Positions 619-44,363 of a stretch of DNA of 64,000 nt are shown in pieces. The DNA comes from Nitrospirales bacterium (GTDB lineage Bacteria; Nitrospirota; Nitrospiria; Nitrospirales; UBA8639): positions 8,474-72,473 of the forward strand of contig JAJDBP010000014.1 of the NCBI GenBank assembly GCA_029261295.1. The letters are read 5' to 3'. A program made the translations under genes and the position numbers. The notes below the pieces were generated by a model, which worked only from the letters and a program-made list of their open reading frames with translations, was not told where the DNA came from and did no database searches. Each line of letters starts with the position of its first letter. Position 1 is the first letter of the stretch.

Positions 619-3348
619 TTGAGGAGAAACACTTTTATGAAAGATGTACTTCAAAAAAATAAAAGAGGTTTCTGGCTCTTAATTGTCATCCTGCTTCTAA
701 CTCCATTCGCCGTCGGAGCTGTAACTTCGCAAGAAGCTAGCATTGAATACCTTAAAGCGGTGATGGATGAATTTCATACTCGCTTTCCGGTCTATGTTGA
801 TGTCAGCTCACCCGGAAACCACTTTCATGCATGGACGAAGATTCCTAACCAATTCGCCACGGTAACTATTAATGGCTCCTCTACCAACACCCCACATGCT
901 GGGGCAACGGCCATACGATGTGAGTTTTTCGTGCCATCGGCAGCCGGATTTGGTGGGTTTTATTTCCAGAATGGGGTGATAACTGGCGACCAATTGTTTC
1001 CCACTCCAAACTTTGGTGAGATTCCTAACGCTGGATTTGATCTCACCGGTGCGACACAGCTCACTTTTTGGGCCCGAGGTAATGCAGGGGGGGAAACGAT
1101 TGAATTTTTTATGGGAGGATTGGGATGGAACCCCGAGACAGGAGAGCCCGAAGAGCCTAACCCAGATTCCGCCCCCGTTGAAAAAATTACGCTGAGTCTC
1201 ACTACCCAATGGACACAATATTCAATCGATCTCTCAAATCTAGATCTTAGTTATGTCCTAGGCGGCTTTGGGTGGGTAGCGAGTGCAGGCCCCAACCCAA
1301 ATGGAGTCGTGTTTTACCTGGATGATATCCAATATGAATTGAACGAAGAACGACAAGAACAACGCCTCAACGAACCCCGGTTCCTCAGAAGCTTTACCAC
1401 AGAACCCCTCCAACCAGAATTTATGAGTCCCGAGGACTTCGACTTCATTCTCCGTAACGTGGCGTTTTCTTATGACAACGCCACGGCCCTCCTCGCGTTC
1501 TTAGCAGATGCCACAGAGGATAGTCTCCGCCGAGCCAAACTTATCGGAGATGCGTTTGTATACGCTTCACAAAACGACCGAGATCCTGACTTTCGAATCG
1601 ACCACCGCATTCGCACAGCCTTTGCCGCCGGCGACATTTCATTGCCGCCAGGATGGGCACCGAATGGATTTCTAGGCACAGTTCCTGTATCAGGAGTCTT
1701 TGTTGAAGAGAGGCAAGAGTTCGTTGAAGTTCAACAGGACGATGTCGACGTAGGCAATAATACTTGGACGATGATGGCCTTAATTGCACTCTACCGAGCA
1801 ACGGGACAAAGTGAGTATCTAGAAACGGCTAAACAAATTGGAACGTTCATTCGCACGTTCAAGAATAACATCGGACAGTTTCAAGGATTTCAAGGTGGAT
1901 TGGAGTGGGAGAGTCCGGAAAACCCAATACTGGTTCGTCGTGCCTGGGCCAGTACTGAACACAATCTTGATATCTTTGCAGCATTCACAACTCTGTATCA
2001 AATTACACGAGACTCATCATGGAAAGTGGATGCAAACCATGCCCGTCTATTTATTGAACAGATGTTTAATTCGCAAACAGGATGTTTCTTCGCGGGGACC
2101 ACAAACCCAAACCTACGGAACGAGGCCAAGGGACAACTTCCTTTAGATACACATTCCTGGACCGTCCTATCCTTAACGGACTCCCTGGACCGTTACCCAG
2201 CGATCCTAAATTGCGCCGAACAAAATCATCGGACAAGTGACGAAGGATTTTCTGGCTTTGATTTTAATGATGACCGAGATGGCGTGTGGTTCGAGGGAAC
2301 AGCCCAAATGGCCCTCGCTTACCAAGTGGCCGGACAACCTTCACCAGCCGATACCTTGCGGCAAGAACTCAGCCGCGCACAAGAAACGCATTTCCCTGGT
2401 ATCGGGATTGGAAGCGGACTCGTCGCCGCCAGCCGAAATGGTGTTACCAGCGGATTCGACTTTCCATTGCTTCGCCGTCTGCATGTCGCGGCTACATCGT
2501 GGAATATTTTTGCCGAAACCATCTTCAATCCGTTTTACGACACCGCACAGGGCCCAACCGGGCGATTGATACTCCCCCCGACAGGATCAGAAATCTCACA
2601 ATCGACCCAAACCTTCCAATGGAACCCCGGACACCTGGTCACCGAATATTGGCTGAGTATTGGAACAAGTCAACAAATGGTTGCGAATGAGCCATGGGGT
2701 GATATTCATTCTCAATCCTATGGCCTCAACCTCTCGGCCCAAGTCTCAAATATTCCCCTCAATGGACAATCACTCGTTGTCAGGCTTTGGTCAAAAATTA
2801 ATGACGGATGGTTATTTGAAGACTACCGCTACACGACCCCAAGCCCTAACGCGTTTACGTTAGATATTGATGGAAATGGAGAAGCCGCTGTCATGGAAGA
2901 TGGGTTGGGAATAGTGCGTTATCTTTCCGGACTGAGGGGCGCAGAACTCACGACTGGAATCATTGATTCAATGGGCACTCGCACAACGGCCGAAGCCATT
3001 GTAGAGTATTTGAATCAAGCCAAACCGGTCATGCTCGATGTAGATGGCAATATGGAATTCACCGCAGAAGAAGACGGACAACTCATTTTACGATATCTGT
3101 TTCAGCTACGCGGCGATGCCCTTATACAGAATGTCATCGGACCCAACGCCACTCGAACGACAGCGGAAGCCATCGAAACCTTCCTCGCAGGCTTCATGTC
3201 TGGAGCGAGCACACAAAGTCATTCACTCCAAAATTCGATAACCCCTACGGATGAGGAACAACCAACATTGCGGCAACGGCACAAGAAAAAGGAACGACAA
3301 AGAAAAGAGCAACGGCCAGCGTCTAGGCATCACAAGGTTCGCCGATGA
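619..3348 (+). CDS. Exported multidomain protein. It has an N-terminal beta-sandwich (CBM-like) region, an (alpha/alpha)6-barrel-like region, two dockerin-like repeats, an S/T linker and a polybasic C-terminal tail.
   Basis: 909-aa ORF. The signal peptide is FWLLIVILLLTPFAVGAV. The probable true start is ATG 637, with GAGGAG at 621-626; TTG 619 is the most upstream start. Dockerin-like repeats are LDIDGNGEAAVMEDGLGIVRYLSGLRG and LDVDGNMEFTAEEDGQLILRYLFQLRG. The C-terminus is RQRHKKKERQRKEQRPASRHHKVRR. The central region (FSYDNATALLAF, GNNTWTMMALIALY, WASTEHNLDIFAAF) only loosely resembles glycosidase-type helical barrels. Confidence 0.8.
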   Translation: MRRNTFMKDVLQKNKRGFWLLIVILLLTPFAVGAVTSQEASIEYLKAVMDEFHTRFPVYVDVSSPGNHFHAWTKIPNQFATVTINGSSTNTPHAGATAIRCEFFVPSAAGFGGFYFQNGVITGDQLFPTPNFGEIPNAGFDLTGATQLTFWARGNAGGETIEFFMGGLGWNPETGEPEEPNPDSAPVEKITLSLTTQWTQYSIDLSNLDLSYVLGGFGWVASAGPNPNGVVFYLDDIQYELNEERQEQRLNEPRFLRSFTTEPLQPEFMSPEDFDFILRNVAFSYDNATALLAFLADATEDSLRRAKLIGDAFVYASQNDRDPDFRIDHRIRTAFAAGDISLPPGWAPNGFLGTVPVSGVFVEERQEFVEVQQDDVDVGNNTWTMMALIALYRATGQSEYLETAKQIGTFIRTFKNNIGQFQGFQGGLEWESPENPILVRRAWASTEHNLDIFAAFTTLYQITRDSSWKVDANHARLFIEQMFNSQTGCFFAGTTNPNLRNEAKGQLPLDTHSWTVLSLTDSLDRYPAILNCAEQNHRTSDEGFSGFDFNDDRDGVWFEGTAQMALAYQVAGQPSPADTLRQELSRAQETHFPGIGIGSGLVAASRNGVTSGFDFPLLRRLHVAATSWNIFAETIFNPFYDTAQGPTGRLILPPTGSEISQSTQTFQWNPGHLVTEYWLSIGTSQQMVANEPWGDIHSQSYGLNLSAQVSNIPLNGQSLVVRLWSKINDGWLFEDYRYTTPSPNAFTLDIDGNGEAAVMEDGLGIVRYLSGLRGAELTTGIIDSMGTRTTAEAIVEYLNQAKPVMLDVDGNMEFTAEEDGQLILRYLFQLRGDALIQNVIGPNATRTTAEAIETFLAGFMSGASTQSHSLQNSITPTDEEQPTLRQRHKKKERQRKEQRPASRHHKVRR

Positions 3349-3370
3349 AAGATCAGATTTAAGAAAGGTC

Positions 3371-6300
3371 TTAACGATTTTTCTTGGAGGACAAACCGCC
3401 AAGGACCACGCGGAGGAAACCTTCAACAAAATCATCGGGCAAGGTCATGGTGGTGACAGAAGTTGAATGCGCCAGAGACCCGGTTAGGGAAGCAGCCTCA
3501 AATATGTGTCGATCATTTCGTTTGCCTTTTGAAGAGAGATACAAATTAATAGACGTGTTCAGAGAAACATTGGTCGCAGCAAGTTCCACAGTGAAGATGC
3601 TGGAATCATCCAGATCGGAAACGGAAATCGGAATTCGCTTGGACCGGCCAGACTCGATAGCCTTCCCATTAATGGCGACCACCTGAACAAATGGACGTCT
3701 CTGTGATGTCGGTATACCTGCTTGGGTGTGAGGCGCAGATGGTACAAGAGGAGAAGATACCGTCACTTCACTTTCTTCCCCACGAAGAGGCGCACGGGAC
3801 CCTTTATTTTGATTGAGGCTGGCCTCTTGTTTCAATGCCTGAGGATCAGCTAAAGAAAGTGGGGATGATTCCACGGCAAACTGAACAAGAAATGGTTCAA
3901 TTTCATCTGCCGTCGTGCGGCAGCCTGAAGAGTCCACGACCCCCGTTGTCAGATCCGACCCTCGCAAACCGCTCAGAAATCTTGATATCAGCAGACCATC
4001 TGTCATGGGGTTTGCTTTCCCACTGCAATCCACATCCAGCATGACGAGTTTCAAAGGGTCGAGGTAAGACACCACAGCCTCAGAAGTCGTGCGGGTTCCA
4101 TTCACCAAATCCACCACACCATCAACAAGCGCATCCCCTCGTAACCCAAACAAATATCGCAAAATGACTTGACCATCAAAGGGTTCAGAAATCTCTCCAT
4201 TGCCATCCACATCCAAGAAAACTGGAAGTGGCCCGACCGAGGCTGTGAGGGCAACCGAACTTCCGAGAGGAACGCTTGTCCCATCAACAGGGATTTGAGA
4301 AATAACGAACCCTGCTGGAATGGACGCACTGATTTCTGGAGTCACACTAGAAATGGTTAACCCTTCTCCTAAGAGAGTTTGCCTAGCTAAAGCAAGCGGT
4401 TGGTCGATGACATTAGGGGCAAAAGCCAGCGGCGCGGCATTCGGATTAAAAATCATAATGTTATCTAACCAGACCTGACTGTCGACACTTCCCATGGTTT
4501 TTAGTCTAAACTCCAGTTCGACTGTCTGACCGGAAAAGGCTGAAATATCGATTGCATCGCTCGACTCAAGCATAGTGCTTAAATCTTCTGTCCCCAATAT
4601 AGTTGAGATAATGTTTCCATTAATCGAAGTAACAAATATGTCTCCATTGCCTTTTTGAGTAAAATGGAAATCAAATTGCAACCGGGAAAAATCTCCTGGT
4701 ATCACAATTTCAGTTCTAATTGCAGCATCCGATCCTTCTGTAAGCTGGACTACGCTATTAATCCCACTTCCATCGTCGACAACGTTTACCAATGCTTCAG
4801 TTATCCACCCTGGAAGCAGCGGTCTTATTAGTGGAATGCGACTGAAATCTTTTGACCACGCCCAAGGATCTAACCAGCGCTGCCCCATTTGCTTATTACC
4901 AACTAACTGACTCGCAACAAAAACAGGGCCTCGAGGCGCACCATCGCCATCCAAGAACGTTTCTTCACCATTGAGATCCTCAGCTCCCCAGTGGCCAGGA
5001 AAAATCAACCAATCTTTAACATTCCCCCCCTTGCTCTCTGGCCCCGCACCGACACGACGTAGATATTCAACAGATACCCCATTGGAAGAAACCACCGGCA
5101 GATCGCCACGATGAAACTCGATTTTTTCGAGGAACGGAAGCAAGCTTTTATCAGGCCACCTCGTCCGACCTCGCTCTTCGTAGCTCGCATGTCCTCCTAG
5201 CCCAACATAGACTCTGGTATGTGTAGCAATAAGATCAGCTTCTTTTCGTCGATCAACATTTGACCAGGGGATCGTGTCACCACCATCCCCAAAAGGACCA
5301 TCAAAGAAGGCCCCGGAAATTCGAACATGTTGGCCAAAAGCAATACGGTCAGGTTGCCAATTGATACCATCGAAGCTTAGAAATATCGTAATCCCTTCCC
5401 AGTCTCCTTCATGTTCATTGGCACCACCATACTCCTTCCAATTGCTTCGCGGGTAATGAAACCAATAGTTAATTGCCAACTCGTTGGCACCAGTCATCGG
5501 TGGAAAATCTCCAAAGTTTGTCTGGACTGACCCATAAATTTTTGCGGGTATTCCTGATGGCCTAAAAACGTCTAATGGGGACAGGTCAAGTTGTTGATTA
5601 TTGGCACCAGTGACTGCACCATCAAACACATCCTGTCTTGCGAATATTGTTTCGGCATCATAGGGTTGAGGAAATCTTTCAGTCCCAGGAATGACATTAA
5701 CGCCATCGTCAAAAACTAAAGTTGGGGTGAAACGAGCCACGAGTTCATTAAACCCAAGAACCAGCTTTTCTTCTCCATCGACAGTTAGGTTCATTGGGAA
5801 AATCACAGCGGGATTATTATCTGGAAGGTCGGCTACAAATAATGCCTTCAATTCTGCCTCGGATGCCTCAGATCTAAGCAACTCAAACTCAACGCTTTGG
5901 ACACTTCCCAAAGGCGGAACAATAAAACTGCTCACCTGAACCGTATAAAACCCTACATCTAACTTCCCAAGATTCGCTACGACTTCTCCTAAGAAATTTA
6001 TCCCTGTCACGTGCCTTGACTTCAATAGGGTGCCACCATCAATAGTAACATTCACCAATTCCGAGAGATCCCACGGAAGCGGAGCATCGAAAGCGACTCG
6101 CAATACATAATCACTTCCCTGGGATATTGGCAATGCCCAAGTCACATCAAATTGTGGATCACCAATAGTTGCCCACCATCGATCGATACAGGACAACCCT
6201 TGGTTGAATATCTTACTATCAACGATAGAAACAGTGGCTTTACTTGCGGAAATGACAGTCTCATTTCCGATCATGGCCAAACTCAATTGAACCGATTCAC

Positions 6301-9250
6301 TGCATTCAAAATCCATATCTTCAAGAGCTTCTATATTGACCTGAGCGGAAAACTTGCCGGACTCAATAGTGACGGTACCCGCGAGGGTCTCGAAGTCATT
6401 TTCATTTGCCGAGCCCTCTATAGAATATTCGACGACTAATGGCTCATCAACTGAACCAGACCTGGTAATCGTAAACTCCCCGAGGTGATCGGAATCTCCC
6501 TCCACAGCAATAGGTTTGGTCGCCTCAATTGTAACCATCTGCGCTCGAACTATTGCCTGGCTCTGGGCATTCGTTTTGACCCAGAAAGCGACCTCCCCAC
6601 GATTGTTCACCGGATCGTAGAGCTTGATCGAGTCTATCTGACCGGGCAAATCAACAATCGTCTGCCCCTCTTCAATGACACGATTTGGTTCATCACTCGT
6701 TGGCAAAGCAGGCTCGGTTAGGTCAACCGTGACTGCGTAAAGGCCAAGCAGGTCATCTGAACTTGGTCCACCAAGCCCCCGTTTGGCAAGAAAGACCACA
6801 GAAAAATTGTCAGGGGATGTTCCCACTGAATGGTTGACACCCACACGGGAATTTAAGTCGAACGCGCTTAGGCCAAATTCCCCACCGGCTATTTTGGTGG
6901 GTGTCGTATAGGTTACGGTTGTGGGTGTTTCCTGTTTTTTCGCAGACACGAAAATTCCAACGCCTTGCGTGTTATGTGCGGCTACAAAGGCAATGAGATT
7001 CCCATCATCACTAATGCCGGGTCGTTGGCCAATCGCACTGAAATCGTTGGTGGTTGAAGCCACAAAGATTGCTGTATTAAGCATTTCGTCCACGAACAGA
7101 GTGAGCGGCGCGCTAGGTTGGGCACCTCCCCTCACAATGGTTTGACCCTCATCCGTGATCATCGGAAAAAATTCAGGGAATCCACTTAGTGCTGCAGAAA
7201 AATTAAAATCACTGGCCAAATCATGACCCCCTGTCTCAGTATCGAGGGGTGTACTCAAAACAGTGGCAGCAAGATTGTCTTTTAGAATTCCACTAAACAC
7301 GACACGACTCTGGCTCCCAACCCTATTGTTGAGCGTAACACCAAGCCGCAAAGCCTCGGCAAGAATGGGAGATGCTGAAAACGGGCTTGTGGACTCCAAC
7401 TCGGGGAAATCTATTCTTGGAAAGAAATTTTTTGCCACAAGTTTAAAATCGTTACTTGTTGTACCTAACCGAAGGATAAAGGAAAACAAGCCGTCATGAG
7501 CCTGCGCACGCCATACCACTTGCTCTTGATTATTAATCTGAACAAAATCCCCAAAAGAAAAAGCAGTGTCCAAGGAATTTATCTGTGCAACAGCGTTATA
7601 GAAAAAGCTATTTACCAAACCAGTTCTTTTCTCCACAGTTTTGCCGTCTCCAATAAATACTCCCTCCTGTGCAGTGTTTGGGCCTTGTTCCGGCGGTTGA
7701 ACACGTGCAATGAACGCAACCTTACCGGAATCGTTAATGGAGGGTCCTGTCCCGAGGTTAGCAATGGTTCCAACGCCAAACGAAGTGTCAGTTTGTGAGA
7801 TGACCTCAAAGCCATAGGGAGTGATGCTAGTGTCAGCAGCACTTTGTACCGCCACATCTCCTACAGGCATCACCTTGGTTGTACCCGACAATAAACCTTG
7901 TGGAACTCCAGATGAAAACTTGCTATCAGCCTGCAAACCAAACTGTTCTTGGAGATCTTGGCTCTTCTCACTGTCGGAACCATCATTAGAATCTAAAGAA
8001 TCGGATCCCCCTACTACTACCTTGACTGTCGTTGGCTTGCTGCCTACCAAACCATCAGAAACTATCAACTGTGGGATATAGATTCCCGGCTCATCTGGCA
8101 CAAGCACAGATTCTCCGCGCTTAATTTCTTTTATCGTGGCATTGCTGTCGTCAGGTCGATTAATGAGCGACCATCGGTAACTGAGTTGATCTCCATCTTG
8201 ATCCAGTGATCGACTCGCATTCAGTGTAATGGTCTCGCCTACCGAGCCGGTCTGATCAGTGCCGGCATCGGCTATCGGCCTAGAATTAGTTGTGCTGATA
8301 ACGACTTGACTTGGTTCGCTGTTGATCGTGCCATCGTTGACAATAAGCTGCGCAACATAGGTTCCGGGCTGATCGATAGCAAGATTTGGATTAGATACGA
8401 AACGATCGGACAACTCCGCAACACTGTCCGGTGGAACGGCGACCAGTGACCAAACGTACGTGAGGCGCGTATTCTTGTTAGCGTCGAATGATTGGCTCCC
8501 ATCTAGAACAATAAGATCTCCGACCGCTGCAGTTTGGTCCCTGCCAGCGTTTGCCATTGGTCGACTATTTTCCGTGGTGATTGTCACCGTCGAGGACTGA
8601 CTATCCGTCACTCCATCGTTAACGATGAGTTGAGCTATATAGGTCCCCAGCTGATCCACCTCGAACTGGGGCGTGACTGCGGAGGGATCCGAAAGGTAGG
8701 CAGTACTGCCCTCTGGCACCATGGTGAAGGACCAGATAAATCTTAGCCTATCCCCATTTACATCACCCGACCCACTGCTATCAAGAACGACCGTCTCTCC
8801 TACAAAGGTCTTTTGATCTTGACCAGCATTGGCCACCGGTGCACTGTTTCCGGTCGTGACCACGACCATATCGGGAACACTATTGGTCCTTCCATCGTTG
8901 ACAATCAGTTGTGCGATATAGATTCCTGGCTCATCAATGTCAAAGCTGGGCATGACCGATGTAGGATTCCTAAGAGCCGCAACACTTCTCTCTGGTTTGG
9001 TCACCATGGTCCATGTGAAGGTTAGGCGATCCCCATTCATATCACTTGAGCCACGGCCATCCAGGATCATCGTCTCTCCAACCGCACCCGTCTGTGCTAC
9101 CCCCGCATTCGCCTGGGGAGCAACCTGAGATTGTCCTCGTAGAACCGAGGGTCCAAAGGCCGGTAAGGGGACGAGACTGCCTGTTAGGACGATAAGTAGG
9201 ACGGCTAGTATTGCCAGGGCAGGTATTAAACGAGAGAATTTATTCCACAT
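3371..9250 (-). CDS. Giant exported protein. Domain order is 4x PKD-like repeats, Calx-beta-like, Vps62/DUF946-like, PASTA-like, 2x dockerin-like repeats, and a C-terminal extension.
   Basis: 1959-aa ORF with an N-terminal signal/TM segment LIPALAILAVLLIVLTG. The PKD-type repeats follow ANAG.DQ....G..V.LDGS.S.D..GD.L.Y.W, ending in AQLIVNDG. The Calx-like segment is GEFTITRSGSVDEPLVVEYSIEGSANENDFETLAGTVTIESG. The Vps62 motif is INYWFHYPRSNWKEYGGANEHEGDWEGITIFL. The PASTA-like segment is LALARQTLLGEGLTISSVTPE...GTSVPLGSSVALTAS. The dockerin-like pair is FLDVDGNGEISEPFDGQVILRYLFGLRG and LDVDCSGKANPMTDGLLISRFLSGLRG. Confidence 0.85.
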   Translation of the reverse strand: MWNKFSRLIPALAILAVLLIVLTGSLVPLPAFGPSVLRGQSQVAPQANAGVAQTGAVGETMILDGRGSSDMNGDRLTFTWTMVTKPERSVAALRNPTSVMPSFDIDEPGIYIAQLIVNDGRTNSVPDMVVVTTGNSAPVANAGQDQKTFVGETVVLDSSGSGDVNGDRLRFIWSFTMVPEGSTAYLSDPSAVTPQFEVDQLGTYIAQLIVNDGVTDSQSSTVTITTENSRPMANAGRDQTAAVGDLIVLDGSQSFDANKNTRLTYVWSLVAVPPDSVAELSDRFVSNPNLAIDQPGTYVAQLIVNDGTINSEPSQVVISTTNSRPIADAGTDQTGSVGETITLNASRSLDQDGDQLSYRWSLINRPDDSNATIKEIKRGESVLVPDEPGIYIPQLIVSDGLVGSKPTTVKVVVGGSDSLDSNDGSDSEKSQDLQEQFGLQADSKFSSGVPQGLLSGTTKVMPVGDVAVQSAADTSITPYGFEVISQTDTSFGVGTIANLGTGPSINDSGKVAFIARVQPPEQGPNTAQEGVFIGDGKTVEKRTGLVNSFFYNAVAQINSLDTAFSFGDFVQINNQEQVVWRAQAHDGLFSFILRLGTTSNDFKLVAKNFFPRIDFPELESTSPFSASPILAEALRLGVTLNNRVGSQSRVVFSGILKDNLAATVLSTPLDTETGGHDLASDFNFSAALSGFPEFFPMITDEGQTIVRGGAQPSAPLTLFVDEMLNTAIFVASTTNDFSAIGQRPGISDDGNLIAFVAAHNTQGVGIFVSAKKQETPTTVTYTTPTKIAGGEFGLSAFDLNSRVGVNHSVGTSPDNFSVVFLAKRGLGGPSSDDLLGLYAVTVDLTEPALPTSDEPNRVIEEGQTIVDLPGQIDSIKLYDPVNNRGEVAFWVKTNAQSQAIVRAQMVTIEATKPIAVEGDSDHLGEFTITRSGSVDEPLVVEYSIEGSANENDFETLAGTVTIESGKFSAQVNIEALEDMDFECSESVQLSLAMIGNETVISASKATVSIVDSKIFNQGLSCIDRWWATIGDPQFDVTWALPISQGSDYVLRVAFDAPLPWDLSELVNVTIDGGTLLKSRHVTGINFLGEVVANLGKLDVGFYTVQVSSFIVPPLGSVQSVEFELLRSEASEAELKALFVADLPDNNPAVIFPMNLTVDGEEKLVLGFNELVARFTPTLVFDDGVNVIPGTERFPQPYDAETIFARQDVFDGAVTGANNQQLDLSPLDVFRPSGIPAKIYGSVQTNFGDFPPMTGANELAINYWFHYPRSNWKEYGGANEHEGDWEGITIFLSFDGINWQPDRIAFGQHVRISGAFFDGPFGDGGDTIPWSNVDRRKEADLIATHTRVYVGLGGHASYEERGRTRWPDKSLLPFLEKIEFHRGDLPVVSSNGVSVEYLRRVGAGPESKGGNVKDWLIFPGHWGAEDLNGEETFLDGDGAPRGPVFVASQLVGNKQMGQRWLDPWAWSKDFSRIPLIRPLLPGWITEALVNVVDDGSGINSVVQLTEGSDAAIRTEIVIPGDFSRLQFDFHFTQKGNGDIFVTSINGNIISTILGTEDLSTMLESSDAIDISAFSGQTVELEFRLKTMGSVDSQVWLDNIMIFNPNAAPLAFAPNVIDQPLALARQTLLGEGLTISSVTPEISASIPAGFVISQIPVDGTSVPLGSSVALTASVGPLPVFLDVDGNGEISEPFDGQVILRYLFGLRGDALVDGVVDLVNGTRTTSEAVVSYLDPLKLVMLDVDCSGKANPMTDGLLISRFLSGLRGSDLTTGVVDSSGCRTTADEIEPFLVQFAVESSPLSLADPQALKQEASLNQNKGSRAPLRGEESEVTVSSPLVPSAPHTQAGIPTSQRRPFVQVVAINGKAIESGRSKRIPISVSDLDDSSIFTVELAATNVSLNTSINLYLSSKGKRNDRHIFEAASLTGSLAHSTSVTTMTLPDDFVEGFLRVVLGGLSSKKNR
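8005..9115 (-). repeat. Four tandem ~92-aa PKD-like domain repeats inside CDS 3371..9250. Boundaries are approximate.
   Basis: The repeat block ANAG(V/Q/R/T)(A/D)Q...VGE..(I/V)LD...S.D..GD.L...W......S.A.L......P.F..D..G.Y.AQLIVNDG recurs four times. The periodicity is also visible as similar antisense shadow ORFs 8534..8746 and 8813..9025. Confidence 0.8.
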
Positions 9251-11064: not shown

Positions 11065-11296
11065 AGTGAACCCCCCTTTTAATTAGAAGTAAGTCATTTC
11101 TGCAGGTATGATCGAAATTGAGAGCTCAATTGTGAGCGGTACGACATGCGTTCATTCCTGCCTGCATCAAGTGGTCGGCAACATATCTGAAATTACCTCT
11201 ATTGTAAACATGAATTCCATTTCAGTATGATGAAACGAATTTTGTTTCTTTATGATTACAAGAAATTAGCATCTTTATAATGTAAGGAGATTTTTT

Positions 11297-16865: not shown

Positions 16866-16914
16866 GTGTTTATCTCCCTTCTTCTTGCTTTCGTTTCATG
16901 CGTTTTCATGGCTT

Positions 16915-17982: not shown

Positions 17983-18005
17983 CCCGAGGTTATTCCCAAG
18001 TCTTA

Positions 18006-35706: not shown

Positions 35707-37455
35707 ATGTTCTTGTTGAAGAAAACCATACTCGTTTTCCTGCTGTGGCTTTCAGCCTGTGGCCTACCCACCCTGATCTGGGCATTGGATACCGCGCCGT
35801 TTGACGTGGATGGGGATTCCGTCACCAATCCCATGACCGATGCGCAAATGATCATGCGCAAAATGATGGGTCTGGATGGGGCTGCCCTTACCGATGGCGT
35901 CGTGAATCCCGCTGGAACGCGCACCGATCCGGATGAAATCAATACCTTCCTTGAAGCCAATCTATTAAGTCCTGAAGACCACTTAACTATTACCGCAGTG
36001 TTTGTCGACGTGAACAATGGGACGCTCACGATCAAAGGAAAAAATTTTGACATCATCAATGTGCCATTAGAAGTCACACTTGAGGAATTAGGAATATTAA
36101 ATGTCGTAGGAGTATCAACCGCCATTGAGGTCGTTGCCGATTTGCCAGCTGGAATTCTTCCTGGAGACTATGTTCTTACCCTTTCAAAAGGTGAAGCTCT
36201 GAGTCAACAAGACTCATTCGATTTGACGATAGGGCAAGGTGCGCAAGGACCTGAAGGCCCGGAAGGACCACCTGGCCCCGAGGGTCCTCCCGGACCGGCG
36301 GGAACATCCAATCTGATCAATATGCGTTGTCCACCCGGACAGGTCATTTATGGATTTGACCAAATAGGTGGAATTTTATGTGCAGATGCCGCAATCGGTG
36401 CGCCAACGCTTCCACCAATCGCCAACCTTTTACCGGGCGACTTGATCATCACTGAGATTATGGCTAATCCTTCCGGCATCAATGCCGAACGAGAGTGGTT
36501 TGAAATACATAATGTCTCTGGCAAGAATTTTGACCTCAATGGAATGGAAATTCTTATCAATGGCACCAATGCGTTGACCCTGACTTCCGCAGTTTCTCTC
36601 CCTTCAGGAGGCTTTCTCGTCATTGGCCGGAACCAGGACCCTCAGGTGAATGGGGGCCTGGCTGTGGATGTCGTCATAGCGGCCACACTTTCCAATACAG
36701 ATAGTTCGATTGAATTACGGAACGGATCTGCCTTAATCGATCAGGTTACGTATACCACGCCAACCTGGCCTATTATTTCTGGTCGAGCCTTACAATTTTC
36801 TGGCACCACCGCCACTGAAAACGATGATGTGGGTTTTTGGTGCGTGGCCTTTGATGTTTATGGAGACGGGGACTTCGGAACACCTGGTGTCACAAACCCT
36901 ACATGCCCAGATATCTCCATTTCCAACCTCTTACCAGGCGACTTGGTCATCACCGAAATAATGGTCAATCCTTCAGGATCGGATAACGGGCGAGAATGGT
37001 TTGAAATACAGAATGTTTCTGGAAAAAGTTTTGACTTGCAAGGGCTGGAAATTCTCATCAACGACAACAATGCGTTGACCATCCCCTCCTCCGCGTTCAT
37101 TCCTTCAGGAGGATTTCTGGTGTTTGGTCAAAGTCAGGATGTCAACGTCAATGGAGGCCTACTGGTCAATTTCCTCTTCACAGCACCACTACCCAATACA
37201 GGCGGATCGATCGAACTCCTCAACGGATTGATTTCCGTGGATCGTGTGGCCTATTCATCCGGCTGGCCCCTTGTAGTAGGAAGCGCCATGAGTTTCGGTG
37301 GAAACGATGCCACACAAAATGATAATGCGGCCTTTTGGTGCGCGGCAACAATGACATATGGCGATGGAGATTTGGGGACACCCGGCAGTCTCAATCCTCT
37401 TTGCAGTCAATCCCTCCTAAATTCTCAAGAGGGCAAACGAAAAAGATTGCGGTGA
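35707..37455 (+). CDS. Collagen-stalk exported protein, head type A. Domain order is signal peptide, single dockerin-like repeat, IPT-like beta domain, short collagen triple helix, 2x lamin-tail domains (LTD), and a basic tail.
   Basis: 582 aa starting at ATG, preceded by GGGAGG. The dockerin-like repeat is [54 protein letters not shown]. The IPT-like segment is LTITAVFVDVNNGTLTIKGKNF. The collagen tract is [24 protein letters not shown]. The LTD motifs are LPGDLIITEIMANPSGINAEREWFEIHNVSGKNFDLNGMEI and LPGDLVITEIMVNPSGSDNGREWFEIQNVSGKSFDLQGLEI. The protein ends EGKRKRLR. Confidence 0.85.
   Translation: MFLLKKTILVFLLWLSACGLPTLIWALDTAPFDVDGDSVTNPMTDAQMIMRKMMGLDGAALTDGVVNPAGTRTDPDEINTFLEANLLSPEDHLTITAVFVDVNNGTLTIKGKNFDIINVPLEVTLEELGILNVVGVSTAIEVVADLPAGILPGDYVLTLSKGEALSQQDSFDLTIGQGAQGPEGPEGPPGPEGPPGPAGTSNLINMRCPPGQVIYGFDQIGGILCADAAIGAPTLPPIANLLPGDLIITEIMANPSGINAEREWFEIHNVSGKNFDLNGMEILINGTNALTLTSAVSLPSGGFLVIGRNQDPQVNGGLAVDVVIAATLSNTDSSIELRNGSALIDQVTYTTPTWPIISGRALQFSGTTATENDDVGFWCVAFDVYGDGDFGTPGVTNPTCPDISISNLLPGDLVITEIMVNPSGSDNGREWFEIQNVSGKSFDLQGLEILINDNNALTIPSSAFIPSGGFLVFGQSQDVNVNGGLLVNFLFTAPLPNTGGSIELLNGLISVDRVAYSSGWPLVVGSAMSFGGNDATQNDNAAFWCAATMTYGDGDLGTPGSLNPLCSQSLLNSQEGKRKRLR
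36232..36303 (+). repeat. Collagen-like G-X-Y tract (8 triplets)
   Basis: The sequence ggg caa ggt gcg caa gga cct gaa ggc ccg gaa gga cca cct ggc ccc gag ggt cct ccc gga ccg gcg gga translates to [24 protein letters not shown]. Confidence 0.9.
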
Positions 37456-37567
37456 GTTTAATCGTATCGAAAAACTCCATGACGTCACATCAAGCCTCAT
37501 TGTCCAGGCTTCCACATGTCGACCAACAAGGCTTGGACCAAAATAAATTAAGAAAGGCAAAACACCC

Positions 37568-38698
37568 ATGAAAGGCAATTATCTGTTGAGCAGACTTTTA
37601 TACCTATGGCTTTTGCTTTTACCCATCCCCTCCTTGACCTGGGCGCTGGATACGGCGCTCTTTGACGTCGATGGGGATTCGGTTGCCAATCCCATGACCG
37701 ATGGGAATCTGATCATGCGAAAAATGTTAGGGCTAGAAGGAACCGCCCTCACCGATGGCGTGGTGAATCCTGCCGGTTTACGTACCGAAGAGGATGAAAT
37801 TAATGCCTTTTTGGAAGCCAGCATGTTGGCCCCGGCGGATCACTTAACGATTACCGAAGTGTTGGTGGACCTAGAGGCAGGAACGCTAACCATCACCGGC
37901 CAAAATTTCCCCATGGGAACCGACCCGATTGTCTTGCTCGGAAATGATACCGTCCCTCTCGGTCTAAGCGGTGTCCCAATGGAAATGGAAATTATTGCAT
38001 TTTTACCGACGCCGGTCATCAATGGGGACTACCTGCTGACCGTTTCGAAAGGTGACGCCCCATCCGAGCGAGATTCATACAACATTACGATTGGTCAAAG
38101 TCCACCTGGCCCCGAAGGGCCAGAAGGTCCTCAGGGGCCGCAAGGATTTCCCGGGGTCCAAGGACTACAAGGACCGGAAGGAGCACAAGGACCTCCAGGC
38201 CCAGCCGCAGATGGCTCCGTACCAATTGACGAATCAGATGCACCTACCGAAGAAATGATTTTTATGAATATTGATGATGGTGCAATTAAGGGAAACGCAA
38301 TCACTTCCGGATATGAAGAGCAAATCGTGGTGGGCTATGTCATGTATGGTGTCGCTCAGGCTGGAGAATGGGAAGAGGGAGAACAAATCACCGGAAGAAT
38401 CACCACCTTTGGCGAATTTCAGATTGTAAAAAATGTCCAAATTGGGAACGGGACTCCAGAATTATTATTCGCCTCCGCAAATAAAACCCAATTCGACAAA
38501 GTTGAGATTAACTTTGTGACGGGAAATGATGCCTATGCGACCATTTCTCTTGAAAAAGTTATCATTACAAGTGACACCGTAAAATTTGATCAGGAATTTA
38601 CCTTGCCAATTGAAATTGTCAGCCTATCGTATCGGAAAGCCACCTGGCGTGTTGGAACAGCAACCACTTCCTATAATCTTGAGGCCGCTACCGACTAA
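37568..38698 (+). CDS. Collagen-stalk exported protein, head type B. It has the same N-terminal module as 35707..37455, a longer collagen helix, and a C-terminal Hcp-like (T6SS tube-protein-fold-like) domain.
   Basis: 376 aa with the signal peptide LLYLWLLLLPIPSLTWA. The dockerin-like repeat is [53 protein letters not shown]. The IPT-like segment is LTITEVLVDLEAGTLTITGQNF. The collagen tract is GPEGPEGPQGPQGFPGVQGLQGPEGAQGPPG. The C-terminal domain is IFMNIDDGAIKGNAITSGYEEQIVVGYVMYGVAQ...GRITTFGEFQIVKNVQIGNGTPELLFASANKTQFDKVEINFV...ISLEKVIITS...PIEIVSLSYRKATWRV. It follows the Hcp1 pattern I.G......H...I.V.s.s.g..q ... dl.f.K..D..sP.L ... v.l.f ... L..v.i.s ... E.v.L.y.k. Confidence 0.7.
   Translation: MKGNYLLSRLLYLWLLLLPIPSLTWALDTALFDVDGDSVANPMTDGNLIMRKMLGLEGTALTDGVVNPAGLRTEEDEINAFLEASMLAPADHLTITEVLVDLEAGTLTITGQNFPMGTDPIVLLGNDTVPLGLSGVPMEMEIIAFLPTPVINGDYLLTVSKGDAPSERDSYNITIGQSPPGPEGPEGPQGPQGFPGVQGLQGPEGAQGPPGPAADGSVPIDESDAPTEEMIFMNIDDGAIKGNAITSGYEEQIVVGYVMYGVAQAGEWEEGEQITGRITTFGEFQIVKNVQIGNGTPELLFASANKTQFDKVEINFVTGNDAYATISLEKVIITSDTVKFDQEFTLPIEIVSLSYRKATWRVGTATTSYNLEAATD
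38108..38200 (+). repeat. Collagen-like G-X-Y tract (about 10 triplets)
   Basis: Translates to GPEGPEGPQGPQGFPGVQGLQGPEGAQGPPG. Confidence 0.9.
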
Positions 38699-38775
38699 GG
38701 GGAAACAATCAAAAATTCCTATAACCACCATCCCTGTTAAGCCTAAACATCTCTCTCACACAAAAAGGACCGCAT

Positions 38776-39444
38776 ATGAAACATACATTTATTCAACAGG
38801 TCATCATCAGCACTTTGCTGTTTTGGAGTGGATTGTATCCCTCGTTTGCCGCCCCATCACCACAAAATATCTTGATAAATATTGGAGAGGGTGCCATTCC
38901 TGGAAATGCAACCGTACCAGGATATGAAAATCAAATCGTCGCCCAAAACTTCTCTTTTGCTGTCTCTCAACTTGGCGAATGGGAAGAGGGAGAACAAATC
39001 ACCGGGAGAGTGACCATTTTTTCGGACTTCACCTTTAGCAAAGAGCTGGACGGTGGAAGCCCAGCTCTTGCTCATGCATCAGCGTTAAAAACGCAATATA
39101 ATAACGCTGTTCTCACCTTTCTCGATACGACGGGAGAACCAATTATCACCGTCACCTTAGAAAAAGTCATTGTCACTAGTGTGGGAATAAAAATGAAACC
39201 AGGTGCAACGAGACCTCTTGAAGTCGTAACATTATCCCATCGCAAGGATACTTGGGAGAGTGGTCAGTCATCTACTTCCTATGACCTTGAAGCGGCATCC
39301 GCGCTAACCGGTGAAATCAGTTCCGCATTAACCGCTCCTACCGGGAGTTCCGCCTTGCTGGATTCCACCACCGAAACCAGCTCCACCGATTCGAACCCTC
39401 TCAGGCAACCTAACAAACGAACCAAAAGAACGAGGACACGATGA
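38776..39444 (+). CDS. Sec-signal-bearing stand-alone Hcp-like domain protein with an S/T-rich linker and a polybasic C-terminal tail
   Basis: 222 aa with the signal peptide VIISTLLFWSGLYPSFA. The domain is ILINIGEGAIPGNATVPGYENQIVAQNFSFAVSQLGEWEEGEQITGRVTIFSDFTFSKELDGGSPALAHASALKTQYNNAVLTFLD...VTLEKVIVTS...PLEVVTLSHRKDTWES. It is paralogous to the C-domain of 37568..38698 and shares GEWEEGEQITGR. The tail is TSSTDSNPLRQPNKRTKRTRTR. Confidence 0.7.
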   Translation: MKHTFIQQVIISTLLFWSGLYPSFAAPSPQNILINIGEGAIPGNATVPGYENQIVAQNFSFAVSQLGEWEEGEQITGRVTIFSDFTFSKELDGGSPALAHASALKTQYNNAVLTFLDTTGEPIITVTLEKVIVTSVGIKMKPGATRPLEVVTLSHRKDTWESGQSSTSYDLEAASALTGEISSALTAPTGSSALLDSTTETSSTDSNPLRQPNKRTKRTRTR

Positions 39445-39585
39445 GCAACCAAATCGCCAGAACCCCAGAGACTCACGCAAAAGAAGTCAGACTCGAATTT
39501 ATGGACCACGTAGACTTCGATTGCTGCTGGTCAAGTCGGCATTCTTCTGCATGATGACCAAACACTGCCGCTATGATGAGAGAAA

Positions 39586-40815: not shown

Positions 40816-40950
40816 AAGGTATTTCCTTACAAAGGAAGAGAAAACATCACCTATAGCATGATTACAAAAATCAATCTACCTCATGAGGACTCAGAAAAGA
40901 GAATGAGACAAGTGGCACAGTCATAAGCAAAGGAACACCAGAGAAAAAGA

Positions 40951-43119
40951 CTATCGTAGCGAACGCTTCCTTTCCCTTTTCTGTCGTTTAGCATGCCCTT
41001 TTTTCTTTCCACGCTGAGTTGGAGGATCTTGAATTTCCGGCTCAGACGTGATGGTAAGCTCTAAACTGTCAGTCAGCGCGGAATCCGGGGATGCAAGATC
41101 TACGGAGGTGCTCACCGCCTCACTCGTGCCGGCCGTTGTCAGCCGACTTCCGGTCGACTCAGCCCCAGGCAGAAACCCACTCAGAAATGCCACAATTGCG
41201 GAGGCCGTGGTCCGCGTCGCACCCACCCCCAGCCCATTGGCCAAGACACTGTCGCTCGTGATGCCAAACAAAAACGCGGTGATAATCTTGCAATCAAACG
41301 TATCTGCCGTGCCATTCCCATCGGCATCCAGCATGCCCAGCGGCTCCACCCCCAGGAGATACGTCATAATCAGTTGCGGGTCGGTGCGCCCGCCGGTAGA
41401 GTCCACCACCCCGGCTGCCACATCCGCTGGATCGGTAATCGCCGGATCCAGATACCGGCAGATCATCGAGCCATCCCACACATTGGTTTCGCTATTAATA
41501 TCAATATCAAAAGTCATCCGTTGGAATGTTTGTTGGGAAACGGGATGAATGGGGTTCAAGGCGAGGTCAAGAACATTGTTTACGGTCAGGGTGTAGCTCA
41601 CTCCTTCAGCAAGAGGAGTTGTGGCAAGAAGGACCGTCACGCCATCAGATTGAAGAGCTGCCTGAAGGATGGATATTCCAGGATCTATAGAGAAGTTACT
41701 GGCGGTCTCAGCACTGCCTCTCTCCAATGGTTCGCTAAAAGTCACGGACACGAGGGTTGGATTACCGGCAGCCATCACATCCAAGATCGTTGGCCCAGAA
41801 ACATCTGATCCTGTGGGAACCAATTTCAGCACTTCCCCTGTTTGCCGCCCGATATACAGCTCTCTGTCTTCATCCTCGCCCCAGGTGATATCGCGTTGGG
41901 GAATAAGCTGCGCACCCGTCGGTTCGATAGCAATCAATTCCAGCTCCCCCGTATTGATATCCATCGCCACCAATTCGGCTGCCACAAAATCAAAGAAAAT
42001 ATATTTACCAAATAATGGTGGCAGCGCTGACCCTCGATACACAAAGCCGCCTATCACAGACCCGAACGCCTTGGTGGTACCATTGTGATCATATTCCGCT
42101 AACGGTGGGGTGAACGCTGGATTAGGTGAAGGATCAACTGTCGCATTCCCACTCACTGGGTCCCAAAGAAAACTCCCCTCCTTCAGATTCCATCCATAGT
42201 TTTTTCCCAACTCTAGGCGCAAAATGGATTCAATCGTGAAATCTCCATTCGTGCCCGTGTACATATCTCCCGTCAGACGATCAGAGGAAATACGCCAAGG
42301 ATTACGAACACCCCAAGCAAATATTTCCGGCACATTTCCGCCTGCTCCATCCGCGAAAGGATTATCAAACGGAATCGTATAACGACCATTGGGTCCAATA
42401 GTATCGACATCGATGCGGAGAATACTTCCATAAGGATTCGTCGTTTGTTGGCCAGTCGTGTGATGAGGAGTCGGCGTGCCAAATGGCGTCGCGCCGCCAT
42501 CGCCAAATGACACATACAAATAACCATCACCGCCAAACGCCAAATCATTCATATTATGTCCGCCGTTAGGCTGGTGCACACGCAGCAATTCTCGTTGAGA
42601 ATCTTGGTCAAACTGGTCAGGATTTGTCGCGTCGACTTGAAATTCAAACAACACGTTATCAAATGCAGAAGACGTATCATCTTGGGGAGGGCTGTAGTCT
42701 GGCGTAGCCCCGTTTGGAACGGCTTCGCCGGAAATCACGTAGAGTTTGCCATTAGTGGCGTAATCTGGATGAAAGGCCATGCCCGACATCGCAAACCCTG
42801 AAGGGGCTGCTGGAATATTCAGGAAGGGTGAGGGACGCAGTGCGCCGTCTTTGAATATACGAATGATCCCGTTTGGCGAGACAAGAAAAAGTCGTCCGCT
42901 CCCATCCCCTGCATTCGTAATATCGAATACCGCACTGGGGTTAACGGACACCACCTGTTCCAATTTGATGGTGTGAGGTCCAAGCGGAATATCGGGCAGT
43001 AGATTGTTTCCATCCCCGACCGCTCTGGCTGACACCGGAGCCAGGCTCACTATCAAGCCAATAACAACCAGCAAGAATTTCAGGGATGAGGTATAGAATG
43101 GCATAGCTATCTTCTTCAA
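40951..43119 (-). CDS. Exported PQQ-dependent sugar dehydrogenase-like beta-propeller with an SbsA-Ig-like domain, a dockerin-like pair and a polybasic tail
   Basis: 722 aa. GSDH landmarks are GDGSGRLFLVSPNGIIRIFKDG, MSGMAFHPDYATNGKLYV, HNMNDLAFGGDGYLYVSFGDGG, YGSILRIDVD, YTIPFDNPF, EIFAWGVRNPWRISSDRLTGDMY and KNYGWN. The Ig-like segment is TLVSVTFSEPLERGSAETASNFSI. The dockerin-like pair is FDIDINSETNVWDGSMICRYL and LDADGNGTADTFDCKIITAFLFGI. The protein ends QRGKKKGHAKRQKRERKRSLR. The start is TTG 43119 or ATG 43104. Confidence 0.85.
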   Translation of the reverse strand: MKKIAMPFYTSSLKFLLVVIGLIVSLAPVSARAVGDGNNLLPDIPLGPHTIKLEQVVSVNPSAVFDITNAGDGSGRLFLVSPNGIIRIFKDGALRPSPFLNIPAAPSGFAMSGMAFHPDYATNGKLYVISGEAVPNGATPDYSPPQDDTSSAFDNVLFEFQVDATNPDQFDQDSQRELLRVHQPNGGHNMNDLAFGGDGYLYVSFGDGGATPFGTPTPHHTTGQQTTNPYGSILRIDVDTIGPNGRYTIPFDNPFADGAGGNVPEIFAWGVRNPWRISSDRLTGDMYTGTNGDFTIESILRLELGKNYGWNLKEGSFLWDPVSGNATVDPSPNPAFTPPLAEYDHNGTTKAFGSVIGGFVYRGSALPPLFGKYIFFDFVAAELVAMDINTGELELIAIEPTGAQLIPQRDITWGEDEDRELYIGRQTGEVLKLVPTGSDVSGPTILDVMAAGNPTLVSVTFSEPLERGSAETASNFSIDPGISILQAALQSDGVTVLLATTPLAEGVSYTLTVNNVLDLALNPIHPVSQQTFQRMTFDIDINSETNVWDGSMICRYLDPAITDPADVAAGVVDSTGGRTDPQLIMTYLLGVEPLGMLDADGNGTADTFDCKIITAFLFGITSDSVLANGLGVGATRTTASAIVAFLSGFLPGAESTGSRLTTAGTSEAVSTSVDLASPDSALTDSLELTITSEPEIQDPPTQRGKKKGHAKRQKRERKRSLR
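41165..41517 (-). repeat. Copy A of a ~350-bp near-duplicated C-terminal dockerin-like module (partner at 43440..43785)
   Basis: The protein segment FDIDINSETNVWDGSMICRYLDPAITDPADVAAGVVDSTGGRTDPQLIMTYL...GMLDADGNGTADTFDCKIITAFLFGITSDSVLANGLGVGATRTTASAIVAFLSGFLPG matches the neighbouring gene. There are long identical DNA runs, for example aatcttgcaatcaaa and gtgccattcccatcggcatccagcatgcc versus gtgccattgccatcggcatcaagcatgcc. Confidence 0.8.
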
Positions 43120-43214
43120 GTTGCTATCCTACCCTAATCATCAAGAGTAAAACGACGGAAACATCATTCAGCGTCACAAATAAACTGAATATTTCTCCGG
43201 TAGGACGCCTTCGT

Positions 43215-44363
43215 TTAACGGCGTCTCGTTTGTGTTCGCTTGCTTCGTTTATGACGACTCTTCTTCTTTGCACTCGACGGCTTCGTGACCTTTACTGGCT
43301 CGATCGTCTGGCTGATTAGAGGCTGCTCCAGCACAATCGAAGCTGTCGTTTCCGACGTAAGGGCGGAAGCCAGCGATTGAACATTCGAGGGAGTTGAGAC
43401 GGTCACTGCTTCCGGCGTACTCACCGCCCCACCCATGCCTGGCAGAAAATCCCTGAGAAAAGCCAGTAACGCATCAGCCGTTGTGCGAGTGGCACCCGAT
43501 CCCAGCCCATTGGCAAATAAACTATCACTCGTGATGCCAAACAAAAATGCCGTAATAATCTTGCAATCAAAATGATCCGATGTGCCATTGCCATCGGCAT
43601 CAAGCATGCCCCGCGCCTCTGCCACCGACAAGTATTCGGTAATTTTTTTGGGGTCCGGACGGCCGCCAGAAGGATCGACGAGCCCTGCTCCTACTTGTTC
43701 CGAATCCGTGATGGCAGGGTCCAGATATCGACAAATCATGGACCCATCCCACACATTCCCCTCGCCATTTAAATCAAGATCCCAGGATAGCACCAAGGGC
43801 CGCCATGCTGTTTCCACGCCATAGCTAATAGACCCGGATTGGTTTCGAAAACTGATCCAGCCCGTGTTCTCACTCCAAGCCCGACCATTAAAATCTCCGG
43901 TGGCGGGATCAATGGTCACCCCATAGTTTTTTGTCGAGCAAGCGTTGGTATTGCTGCAGGAAAAACTAATCCAACCGACGTTTTCACTCCAGGCATAACC
44001 AGCAAGATTTCCTGCCCCATCATTGGTTACGCGATAGTCCCGAGATAGACACGTGCGATTATTCAAACACGACAAACTCACCCAACCCGTGTTCTCGGAC
44101 CAGAGATAGCCGGACACCCCATCATCTTCCACAAACATGCCCGGGCCGCCATCGCCGCCCGGTTCGGCATTCAGCCAACCGGTGTTTTCACTCCAGGCAT
44201 ATTGCGCCCCACTATCATCCGGATCAATATTGTCACTGGCCAGCGCCAGAGAACCTGACAGGCCCAGTACCAAAACTGCACTAAGCACCACCTGAATCCC
44301 ACATTGTTTTGAATGAGTCATGATGCCCTCCGTCTTATCAAACGATTTTTGTTCACTCCACAT
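43215..44363 (-). CDS. Exported protein with 4x W-S-E-N-x-G-W repeats, a dockerin-like pair and a polybasic tail
   Basis: 382-aa ORF. The probable start is ATG 44321, preceded by ACGGAGGG. The signal peptide is VVLSAVLVLGLSGSLALA. The repeats are YAWSENTGWLNA, YLWSENTGWVSLSC, YAWSENVGWISFSC and RAWSENTGWISF. The dockerin-like pair is WDLDLNGEGNVWDGSMICRYL and LDADGNGTSDHFDCKIITAFLFGI. The protein ends SSAKKKSRHKRSKRTQTRRR. Confidence 0.8.
   Translation of the reverse strand: MWSEQKSFDKTEGIMTHSKQCGIQVVLSAVLVLGLSGSLALASDNIDPDDSGAQYAWSENTGWLNAEPGGDGGPGMFVEDDGVSGYLWSENTGWVSLSCLNNRTCLSRDYRVTNDGAGNLAGYAWSENVGWISFSCSNTNACSTKNYGVTIDPATGDFNGRAWSENTGWISFRNQSGSISYGVETAWRPLVLSWDLDLNGEGNVWDGSMICRYLDPAITDSEQVGAGLVDPSGGRPDPKKITEYLSVAEARGMLDADGNGTSDHFDCKIITAFLFGITSDSLFANGLGSGATRTTADALLAFLRDFLPGMGGAVSTPEAVTVSTPSNVQSLASALTSETTASIVLEQPLISQTIEPVKVTKPSSAKKKSRHKRSKRTQTRRR
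43440..43785 (-). repeat. Copy B of the near-duplicated C-terminal dockerin-like module (partner at 41165..41517)
   Basis: See copy A. By eye the two copies are about 75-85% identical at the protein level over ~115 aa, whereas the N-terminal parts of the two genes are unrelated. Confidence 0.8.

Follow-up and report, generated by a model that had tools for sequence, protein, structure and literature searches.

The 64,000-nucleotide stretch analysed here (the window) comes from a Nitrospirales bacterium (GenBank assembly GCA_029261295.1, contig JAJDBP010000014.1, positions 8,474 to 72,473 of the forward strand) and carries a set of genes for exported proteins that end in strongly basic tails without a transmembrane (TM) helix. 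A preliminary description of this DNA counted six to seven such proteins and suggested that their tails are a new sorting or anchoring signal. We find that the tail is the end of a 50–75-residue C-terminal cassette in which an acidic spacer precedes the polycation, describe its distribution and conservation, and tentatively propose that it keeps its carriers near the cell by binding polyanions.

Exported proteins with basic tails

Five proteins, named below by their first coordinate, carry the cassette in full. The first (619..3348, + strand) is an exported protein of 909 amino acids in which a signal peptide is followed by a body with weak GH127-like and choice-of-anchor-J-like character, a pair of dockerin-like repeats (2851..3198, approximately residues 745–860 by alignment) and the cassette (3199..3345), composed of the spacer SGASTQSHSLQNSITPTDEEQPTL and the tail RQRHKKKERQRKEQRPASRHHKVRR (nt 3271-3345). 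Its repeat pair is 52% identical to that of the database protein P0004, itself polybasic-tailed. Two carriers on the minus strand resemble glucose/sorbosone dehydrogenases (GSDH). The 20806..22617 protein (603 amino acids; PF07995) has a repeat pair at 20989..21345 (approximately residues 425–543, from alignment) and a cassette at 20809..20988, with SSPSALVEED in the spacer and the tail SRLRQGKLKRRK, of which the preliminary description had given RLRQGKLKRRK (nt 20809-20841). The 40951..43119 protein (722 amino acids) combines the GSDH-like fold with a Big_5 domain, an aligned repeat pair (41164..41517, residues 535–652) and a cassette (40954..41163) whose spacer includes SPDSALTDSLELTITSEPEIQDPPT and whose tail is QRGKKKGHAKRQKRERKRSLR (nt 40954-41016); pair and cassette together are 55–61% identical to those of P0193, P0003, P0029, P0041, P0002 and P0001, and the cassette architecture is near-identical in the related locus L010.

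The 43215..44363 protein (− strand), 368 amino acids long from the ATG of database entry P0001, has a beta domain of WSENTGW repeats, an aligned repeat pair (43437..43790) and a cassette (43218..43436) with a 53-residue spacer containing SLASALTSETTASIVLEQP and the tail SSAKKKSRHKRSKRTQTRRR (nt 43218-43277). The fifth carrier (38776..39444, +) is a signal-peptide-bearing Hcp-like protein (PF05638) with the cassette at 39280..39441, reading ASALTGEISSALTAPTGSSALLDSTTETSSTDSNPL and then the tail RQPNKRTKRTRTR (nt 39403-39441). It lacks the dockerin-like pair, as first described, and the pair is present in the other four of the five strong carriers.

A sixth exported protein (35707..37455, +), built from a single N-terminal dockerin-like repeat, collagen GPE repeats and two lamin-tail domains, closes with the short basic end EGKRKRLR (37429-37452, +) and is a marginal member without an S/T/P-rich spacer. 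Lipobox-like motifs occur in its signal peptide (LWLSAC, window 35707-35770) and in that of the database protein P0041 (LSLGAC), so that some tail proteins may be lipoproteins with an N-terminal lipid anchor besides the basic C terminus. Two neighbours serve as contrasts: an exported M36 fungalysin-like protease (54558..57587, −), which has the dockerin-like pair at its extreme C terminus and no tail, its relative at locus L009 likewise lacking a tail; and a signal-peptide protein with collagen and Hcp-like parts (37568..38698, +), which also ends without one.

Translation of the listed open reading frames (ORFs) reproduced all of the C termini in the preliminary description at their coordinates. 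Lysine and arginine residues (K/R) were tallied over the last 20 residues and compared with the composition of the same protein in a hypergeometric test. The enrichment is strong in 40951 (12 K/R, p = 9e-11), 43215 (11, p = 2e-8), 619 (10, p = 3e-7), 20806 (8, p = 3e-5) and 38776 (7, p = 2e-4). It is marginal in 35707 (5, p = 5e-4), in which an 8-residue tail abuts a folded domain, and not significant in the 3371..9250 protein (4, p = 0.04), which ends in SSKKNR. The earlier count of six to seven is thus revised to five strong tail proteins, one marginal and one rejected.

The five strong tails span 12–25 residues and have net charges of +7 to +11. No other 20-residue window within the tail proteins holds seven or more K/R, and a six-frame scan of ORFs of at least 100 amino acids yielded no additional genuine tail, its sole extra match being one shadow ORF. 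Over the last 60 residues, the maximum 13-residue Kyte–Doolittle mean is 0.5–1.2 in the tail proteins, with no TM-like segment by this measure, compared with 1.8–2.1 in the three PEP-CTERM proteins of the window. Among 308 homologues from other lineages, four (1.3%) have a TM-less C terminus with at least seven K/R in the last 20 residues; against this background, five tails among about 31 window genes correspond to a binomial P of approximately 5e-5. The claims that these tails are real, non-random and TM-less therefore hold.

A bipartite cassette on unrelated bodies

The spacer is 35–55 residues long, rich in S, T, P and E and net acidic (4–11 D/E), and the tails that follow it hold 7–12 K/R. 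In the 43215/40951 type, a core of the form SSALT(x)EPT ... VLEEP recurs, with SSALT located about 35–45 residues ahead of the C-terminal end; the Hcp type has the variant SSALTAPT and the 20806 protein the variant PSALVEED. The polycation itself takes two forms. RGKKKGHxKRxKR is found in six of seven aligned 43215/40951-type cassettes, the 43215 protein of the window reading AKKKSRHKRSKR at that position, and an LRQxxKR... sequence is found in 619, 20806 and the Hcp type. Comparison of the seven closest cassettes gives pairwise identities of 73% for the dockerin-like pair, 43% for the spacer and 57% for the tail, with basic charge kept in all of them.

The bodies that bear the cassette are unrelated to one another: a WSENTGW beta domain, a beta-helix, GSDH, GH127-like and Hcp-like folds. 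Hcp-type and dockerin-type cassettes align in register (hhalign P = 8.6e-4, with a probability of only 24% and in low-complexity sequence), and because this match is weak a common origin of the two types is only suggested. Neither Pfam nor NCBIfam models, the curated sorting-domain models included (NCBIfam E<=10), match the cassette, and a cassette-only profile returned a single protein from a 5.8-billion-protein database, a search to which low-complexity cassettes are ill suited. Inspection of the tail-coding DNA and its downstream flanks revealed no evident common sequence, and we rejected a DNA-level repeat or mobile element as the source of the tails.

An AlphaFold2 model of the 43215 protein (77-sequence alignment) gives predicted local distance difference test (pLDDT) scores of about 89–96 for most of residues 30–295, in which the repeat pair forms a confident helical region (pLDDT ~89–96). 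Residues 296–368 score about 45–54 (<50 for 296–358 and 54 for the last block), and this cassette, the one modelled, is therefore predicted to be disordered. The carrier bodies are strongly acidic, with isoelectric points (pI) of 4.05–4.46 and net charges of −11 to −54 (619, pI 4.46, net −54; 20806, pI 4.34, net −37; 40951, pI 4.13, net −51), leaving the pI-12 tail as the sole cationic element of these proteins.

Basic tails accompany signal peptides

Signal-peptide-like N termini are present in all tail proteins, in agreement with the earlier assignment of the tails to exported proteins, and in all tail-bearing relatives with a complete N terminus. The Hcp-like family offers an internal comparison: none of 49 full-length members without a signal peptide is basic-tailed, compared with three of five that have one (Fisher p ~1.5e-3). 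The ~49 canonical 150-residue members from Nitrospira-like genomes have neither signal peptide nor tail, and two of the three basic tails in the family (P0176 and P0177) are unrelated in sequence. The four sporadic polybasic C termini from other lineages are likewise all on signal-peptide proteins. Basic tails are thus coupled to signal peptides.

Both the window (35707-39444, +) and locus L008 (8694-10663) contain a three-gene set of signal-peptide proteins that mixes collagen GPE repeats, lamin-tail and Hcp (type VI secretion tube) domains. Because the canonical Hcp-like proteins lack a signal peptide, those of the set look like exported, repurposed Hcp folds; no type VI secretion genes lie nearby.

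The repeat pair and the lineage of the tail

In four of the five strong carriers, a pair of ~55-residue repeats lies immediately ahead of the cassette, with the alignment consensus DxDGNG..DG.LI.RYLFGLRG..L..G....A.R.TA..I..YL. The Dockerin_1 model (PF00404), which describes a duplicated Ca-binding loop-helix, matches two of the five pairs at a sub-threshold E of 0.003. The pair alignment displays a DxDGNGxxxxxDG loop with a helix after it, and the region is helical in the AlphaFold model. By these features the pair is weakly dockerin-like and probably binds calcium. A Foldseek search of the PDB with the whole 43215 model returned no significant match.

A profile search of 1.84 billion representative sequences identified 5,177 proteins with the pair. 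Among the best 150 of these, most terminate exactly at the pair and five bear the tail: P0181, which is the 619 protein of the window, and its database relatives P0002, P0029, P0193 and P0319. Because most of these pair proteins, and the M36 protease of the window, end without a tail, the tail is, in the sample available, an add-on confined to one lineage and not a part of the pair. In other lineages, dockerins or C termini of a TM-containing, sorting type come after the WSENTGW body, and the cassette thus occupies the position of an anchor, in the sense of 'choice-of-anchor' proteins.

Seven pair proteins from other lineages (P0183, P0198, P0220, P0252, P0261, P0297 and P0316) have a T/S-rich linker after the pair and, at the very end, LAYVQQSWVKDFV....EEELLIALPG, a candidate second lineage-specific C-terminal tag.

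Conservation in related assemblies

Conservation could be followed for two of the five strong cassettes, those of 43215 and 38776. Homologues of the 43215 protein at 53–66% identity (P0002, P0003 and P0004) keep the linker and polybasic tail, as do proteins in which this C-terminal region sits on other bodies (P0029; P0041/P0121, with a beta-helix; P0193; and a frameshifted copy at L010). P0002 lies at the syntenic locus L001, where, like the 43215 gene in the window, it follows the Lcl_C paralogue array; P0041/P0121 belongs to a Nitrospirota metagenome-assembled genome (MAG; loci L002 and L009); and P0193 corresponds to L003 and L004. The Hcp-type cassette of 38776 is conserved in P0123, from a syntenic locus of a Nitrospirota MAG (L007), and in P0175. 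The Nitrospirota MAG JAOUNC01 and the related contigs L007 and L009 share window genes for the Hcp-tail protein, a 409-residue Macro-domain protein, an NDH2-cNMP protein and the M36 protease, which marks the source of the window as Nitrospirota-like. In all, two of the cassette-keeping assemblies are syntenic with the window. Scans with the pair-alignment profile found one locus in the genome collection and three in metagenomes.

At least six separately assembled records agree in reading frame, stop position and basic character, orthologue indels are multiples of three and lysine codons vary at synonymous AAG/AAA positions. Because the 43215 and 38776 tails are kept in separate assemblies with in-frame indels, they are not frameshift artefacts, and both cassettes are, at the level of sequence, conserved in related assemblies; the conservation and frameshift checks proposed at the outset are passed for these two. 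At L010 (~11200-11520), a long-read contig of 2x coverage, a frameshift separates the repeat pair (end of P0010) from an otherwise intact cassette, SSESALTENSESSIISEPDGQVSPSQRGLKKGHGKRQKMNMKRSKR; this is an assembly error that conceals the tail from gene callers. The reading of the tails as neutral low-complexity extensions or as gene-calling or assembly artefacts, basic by chance, to which one might assign the fast-diverging linker (43% identity), the weak 35707 and 3371..9250 ends and the frameshift in low-coverage L010, is largely refuted by this conservation, by the extreme enrichment over composition and background and by the exclusive occurrence on signal-peptide proteins, and we regard it as very improbable.

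Relation to known C-terminal signals

The profiles PF07589 and TIGR02595 match, and so confirm, the three PEP-CTERM proteins of the window, but they match no tail protein and no isolated cassette; two distinct C-terminal tags therefore coexist at this locus, as the preliminary description held. The resemblance is that both are C-terminal tags on exported proteins of the same locus, with a basic end, PEP-CTERM too often following an S/T-rich linker; the difference lies in the PEP motif and the TM helix, both obligatory in PEP-CTERM and both absent from the tails (PMC1569441). The terminal basic cluster is also shorter in the PEP-CTERM proteins of the window (3–5 residues, compared with 7–12 K/R in the last 20 residues of the tails). 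Because neither a motif nor a helix nor any alignment supports it, we rejected the possibility that the tails are degenerate PEP-CTERM domains with a lost helix. Neither an LPXTG motif nor a hydrophobic segment occurs in the printed C termini, and the NCBIfam matches to LPXTG collagen adhesins fall on collagen repeats only, far below the cut-off. The C-terminal domain (CTD) of type IX secretion is a folded beta-sandwich of ~70–100 amino acids, whereas the modelled 43215 cassette is predicted to be disordered; the type IX models (Por_Secre_tail and type B) do not match the cassette at NCBIfam E<=10, and a study of type IX secretion and lipopolysaccharide (PMC12860637) does not apply here as it concerns the folded CTD. 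A cross-link of a C-terminal lysine to peptidoglycan, as in Lpp, was rejected on the ground that most tails end in arginine.

The statement that all known C-terminal signals include a TM helix or a folded domain proved too strong. The C-terminal signals of type I and type IV secretion are unstructured, and those of VirB/D4-type type IV systems are positively charged, examples being Agrobacterium VirE2, VirF and VirD5 and the tails of Bartonella Bep proteins. VirB/D4 signals share with the tails an unstructured, TM-less and net-positive C terminus that acts there as a sorting signal, but their substrates are cytoplasmic and lack a Sec signal peptide, whereas all tail proteins here have one. On account of the signal peptides we rejected a type IV secretion signal, and no type IV secretion or coupling-protein genes are present in the 64-kb window or the related loci.

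Electrostatic binding by basic tails is an established principle. The lysine-rich C terminus of HBHA binds heparan sulfate (PMC3293801), NHBA and the alpha-peptide of IgA protease, both released by NalP, have heparin and extracellular DNA as ligands (PMC5472700), and the C-terminal GRxR tail of the minor pilin FimT binds DNA in a non-specific, salt-sensitive manner (PMC8897410). HBHA, a surface protein, resembles the tail proteins in that its C-terminal segment is disordered, strongly basic and binds a polyanion electrostatically, and differs in lacking a Sec signal peptide, in its methylated Lys-Ala-Pro repeats, in being a single protein and in showing no homology (PMC3293801). The Neisseria segments are likewise basic, belong to exported Gram-negative surface proteins and serve retention and biofilm formation, with proteolytic release beside the basic region; they are internal, however, their carriers are membrane-anchored lipoproteins or autotransporters, and they have neither the acidic S/T/P spacer nor homology to it (PMC5472700). 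FimT is an exported surface protein whose C-terminal tail is short, conserved, basic and unstructured, but this tail has only a few residues on a pilin fold, is used for DNA uptake and is not modular across families (PMC8897410). An exposed, disordered K/R cluster on an exported protein, as in these three cases, is found here as well, and by this analogy the cassette appears nearest to polyanion-binding basic tails, which are a functional class and not a homologous family. It stands apart from that class in being modular, in having an acidic spacer ahead of the C-terminal tail, in being common to unrelated Sec-exported proteins of one locus and in being conserved within a lineage; such a cassette is not described in the literature that we searched, non-exhaustively.

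Neighbouring genes

Directly upstream of the 43215 gene, the window contains seven tandem small signal-peptide Lcl_C (PF07603) paralogues (44399-49290, −), most of which share a near-identical C-terminal motif of the WCVRGGGPLSEY type; at L001, four Lcl_C genes (908-3637) in a comparable array precede the tail-protein orthologue. Two giant multi-Ig-domain proteins (22814-32437, −; 58189-64000, +) have a basic N terminus followed by a common LEPRILLSAD motif. The second of these also has a dockerin-like pair near its N terminus and a leishmanolysin-like M8 domain, and the right end of the window appears ORF-free in the list only because this ORF is open-ended and runs off the window. Within the pro-region of the M36 protease lies a polybasic stretch (approximately residues 108–135; LRSLRHPKKLLSRKRYRKARVGARRFLRRH, 10 K/R in 20). 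Between 13807 and 18461, a signal-peptide C39-like peptidase and an exported protein of 454 amino acids adjoin three exported paralogues (16185-18461) with a conserved N-terminal PWS(V/I)EKL..SEM..(V/I)TG(E/K)WN motif and Q/N/P-rich ends; none of them matches a Pfam model. Rfam and tRNA scans of the window returned no match.

A proposed role for the cassette

The tails are tag-like, linked to export and free of TM segments, as the preliminary description had proposed for a sorting or anchoring signal; the sorting or anchoring itself, like the final location, binding partner and retention function of the tail proteins, is what we infer. Our leading reading, held tentatively and by analogy with the basic tails discussed above, is that the cassette acts as a retention tail that binds polyanions non-covalently, a 'charge leash'. 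The carrier would be exported through Sec and its signal peptide removed; the flexible, disordered spacer would keep the acidic folded domains away from the polycationic end, and this end would bind a polyanion non-covalently. Candidate ligands are lipopolysaccharide phosphates, the acidic exopolysaccharide expected with PEP-CTERM/exosortase, extracellular DNA and anionic particle or host surfaces. The enzyme or adhesin would thereby be retained at the cell surface or in the matrix, and proteolysis at the numerous dibasic sites would release it.

Several points weigh against this proposal. The positional conservation of SSALT and KKKGHxKR goes beyond the needs of a purely electrostatic function, and such motifs could reflect recognition by a specific partner, although the compared sequences are close relatives (pair identity ~73%). 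The membrane potential also opposes the Sec translocation of a polycationic segment, and export of the tail itself is assumed. Finally, the contig of L006 and L008 carries Hcp-like genes without tails, and the tag is therefore dispensable for the Hcp-like family.

The same positional motifs lead to the next reading, that the cassette is a sorting or processing tag whose dedicated machinery reads SSALT and the polybasic end and cleaves the carrier, transfers it across or onto the outer membrane, or both, in a logic like that of LPXTG/sortase or PEP-CTERM/exosortase minus the TM helix. SSALT and RGKKKGHxKRxKR/LRQxxKR are conserved by position and recur across protein families, Hcp-type and dockerin-type cassettes are in register, the cassette is placed where homologues from other lineages have sorting signals, and it is confined to signal-peptide proteins. 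On the other hand, the surroundings of the tail genes, in the window and at L001–L010, hold no conserved processing enzyme, sortase-like protein or secretion component, the in-register match is of low probability and in low-complexity sequence, the NCBIfam sorting-domain models are silent at E<=10, and membrane-embedded sortase-like enzymes normally need a TM-anchored substrate. We consider a sorting or processing tag unlikely, and its fuller form, a previously undescribed TM-less tag (SSALT, RGKKKGHxKRxKR) of Sec-exported proteins in this Nitrospirota lineage with its own machinery attaching or processing cargo at the cell surface, somewhat more so.

The polycation might instead be directed outwards, as a peptide for adhesion, penetration or nucleation on sulfated or acidic glycans of a host or other organisms, on mineral or on silica. 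The tails fit heparin-binding or nuclear-localization-like basic clusters, HBHA and NHBA provide precedents (PMC3293801, PMC5472700), and eukaryote-like adhesive domains are numerous at the locus (collagen, lamin-tail, weak C-type lectin, PKD, Calx-beta and Lcl_C). Any polybasic sequence matches such motifs trivially, however, and several carriers are GSDH-like enzymes rather than adhesins, which leaves an outside target improbable in our estimation. Nor do we see much prospect for the cassette as a removable pro-segment or intramolecular regulator, in which the tail would fold onto the acidic body or spacer, as a solubility, chaperone or inhibitory element, before being clipped by a dibasic-specific protease: an acidic spacer does adjoin the basic tail on bodies of pI ~4, dibasic sites abound (for example RHKR, RQKR and KRRK) and the neighbouring M36 protease has a polybasic stretch in its pro-region, but the modelled cassette is disordered in AlphaFold with no confident contact to the body, and carriers of unrelated fold, including the non-enzymatic Hcp-like protein, argue against a fold-specific chaperone or inhibitor.

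As a retention tag, the cassette would offer a Gram-negative bacterium a simple means of holding several secreted enzymes and adhesins close to the cell, through a portable, disordered charge leash that needs neither a lipid anchor nor a TM helix nor a dedicated sortase. It would also supply a sequence signature with which to predict surface or matrix localization in uncultured Nitrospirota, and could find use in engineering as a compact display tag. Were it a true sorting signal instead, it would imply an unknown processing system and a new class beside LPXTG, PEP-CTERM, GlyGly-CTERM and the type IX CTD. On either reading, the SSALT and KKKGH motifs are concrete sites for mutagenesis and proteomic searches.

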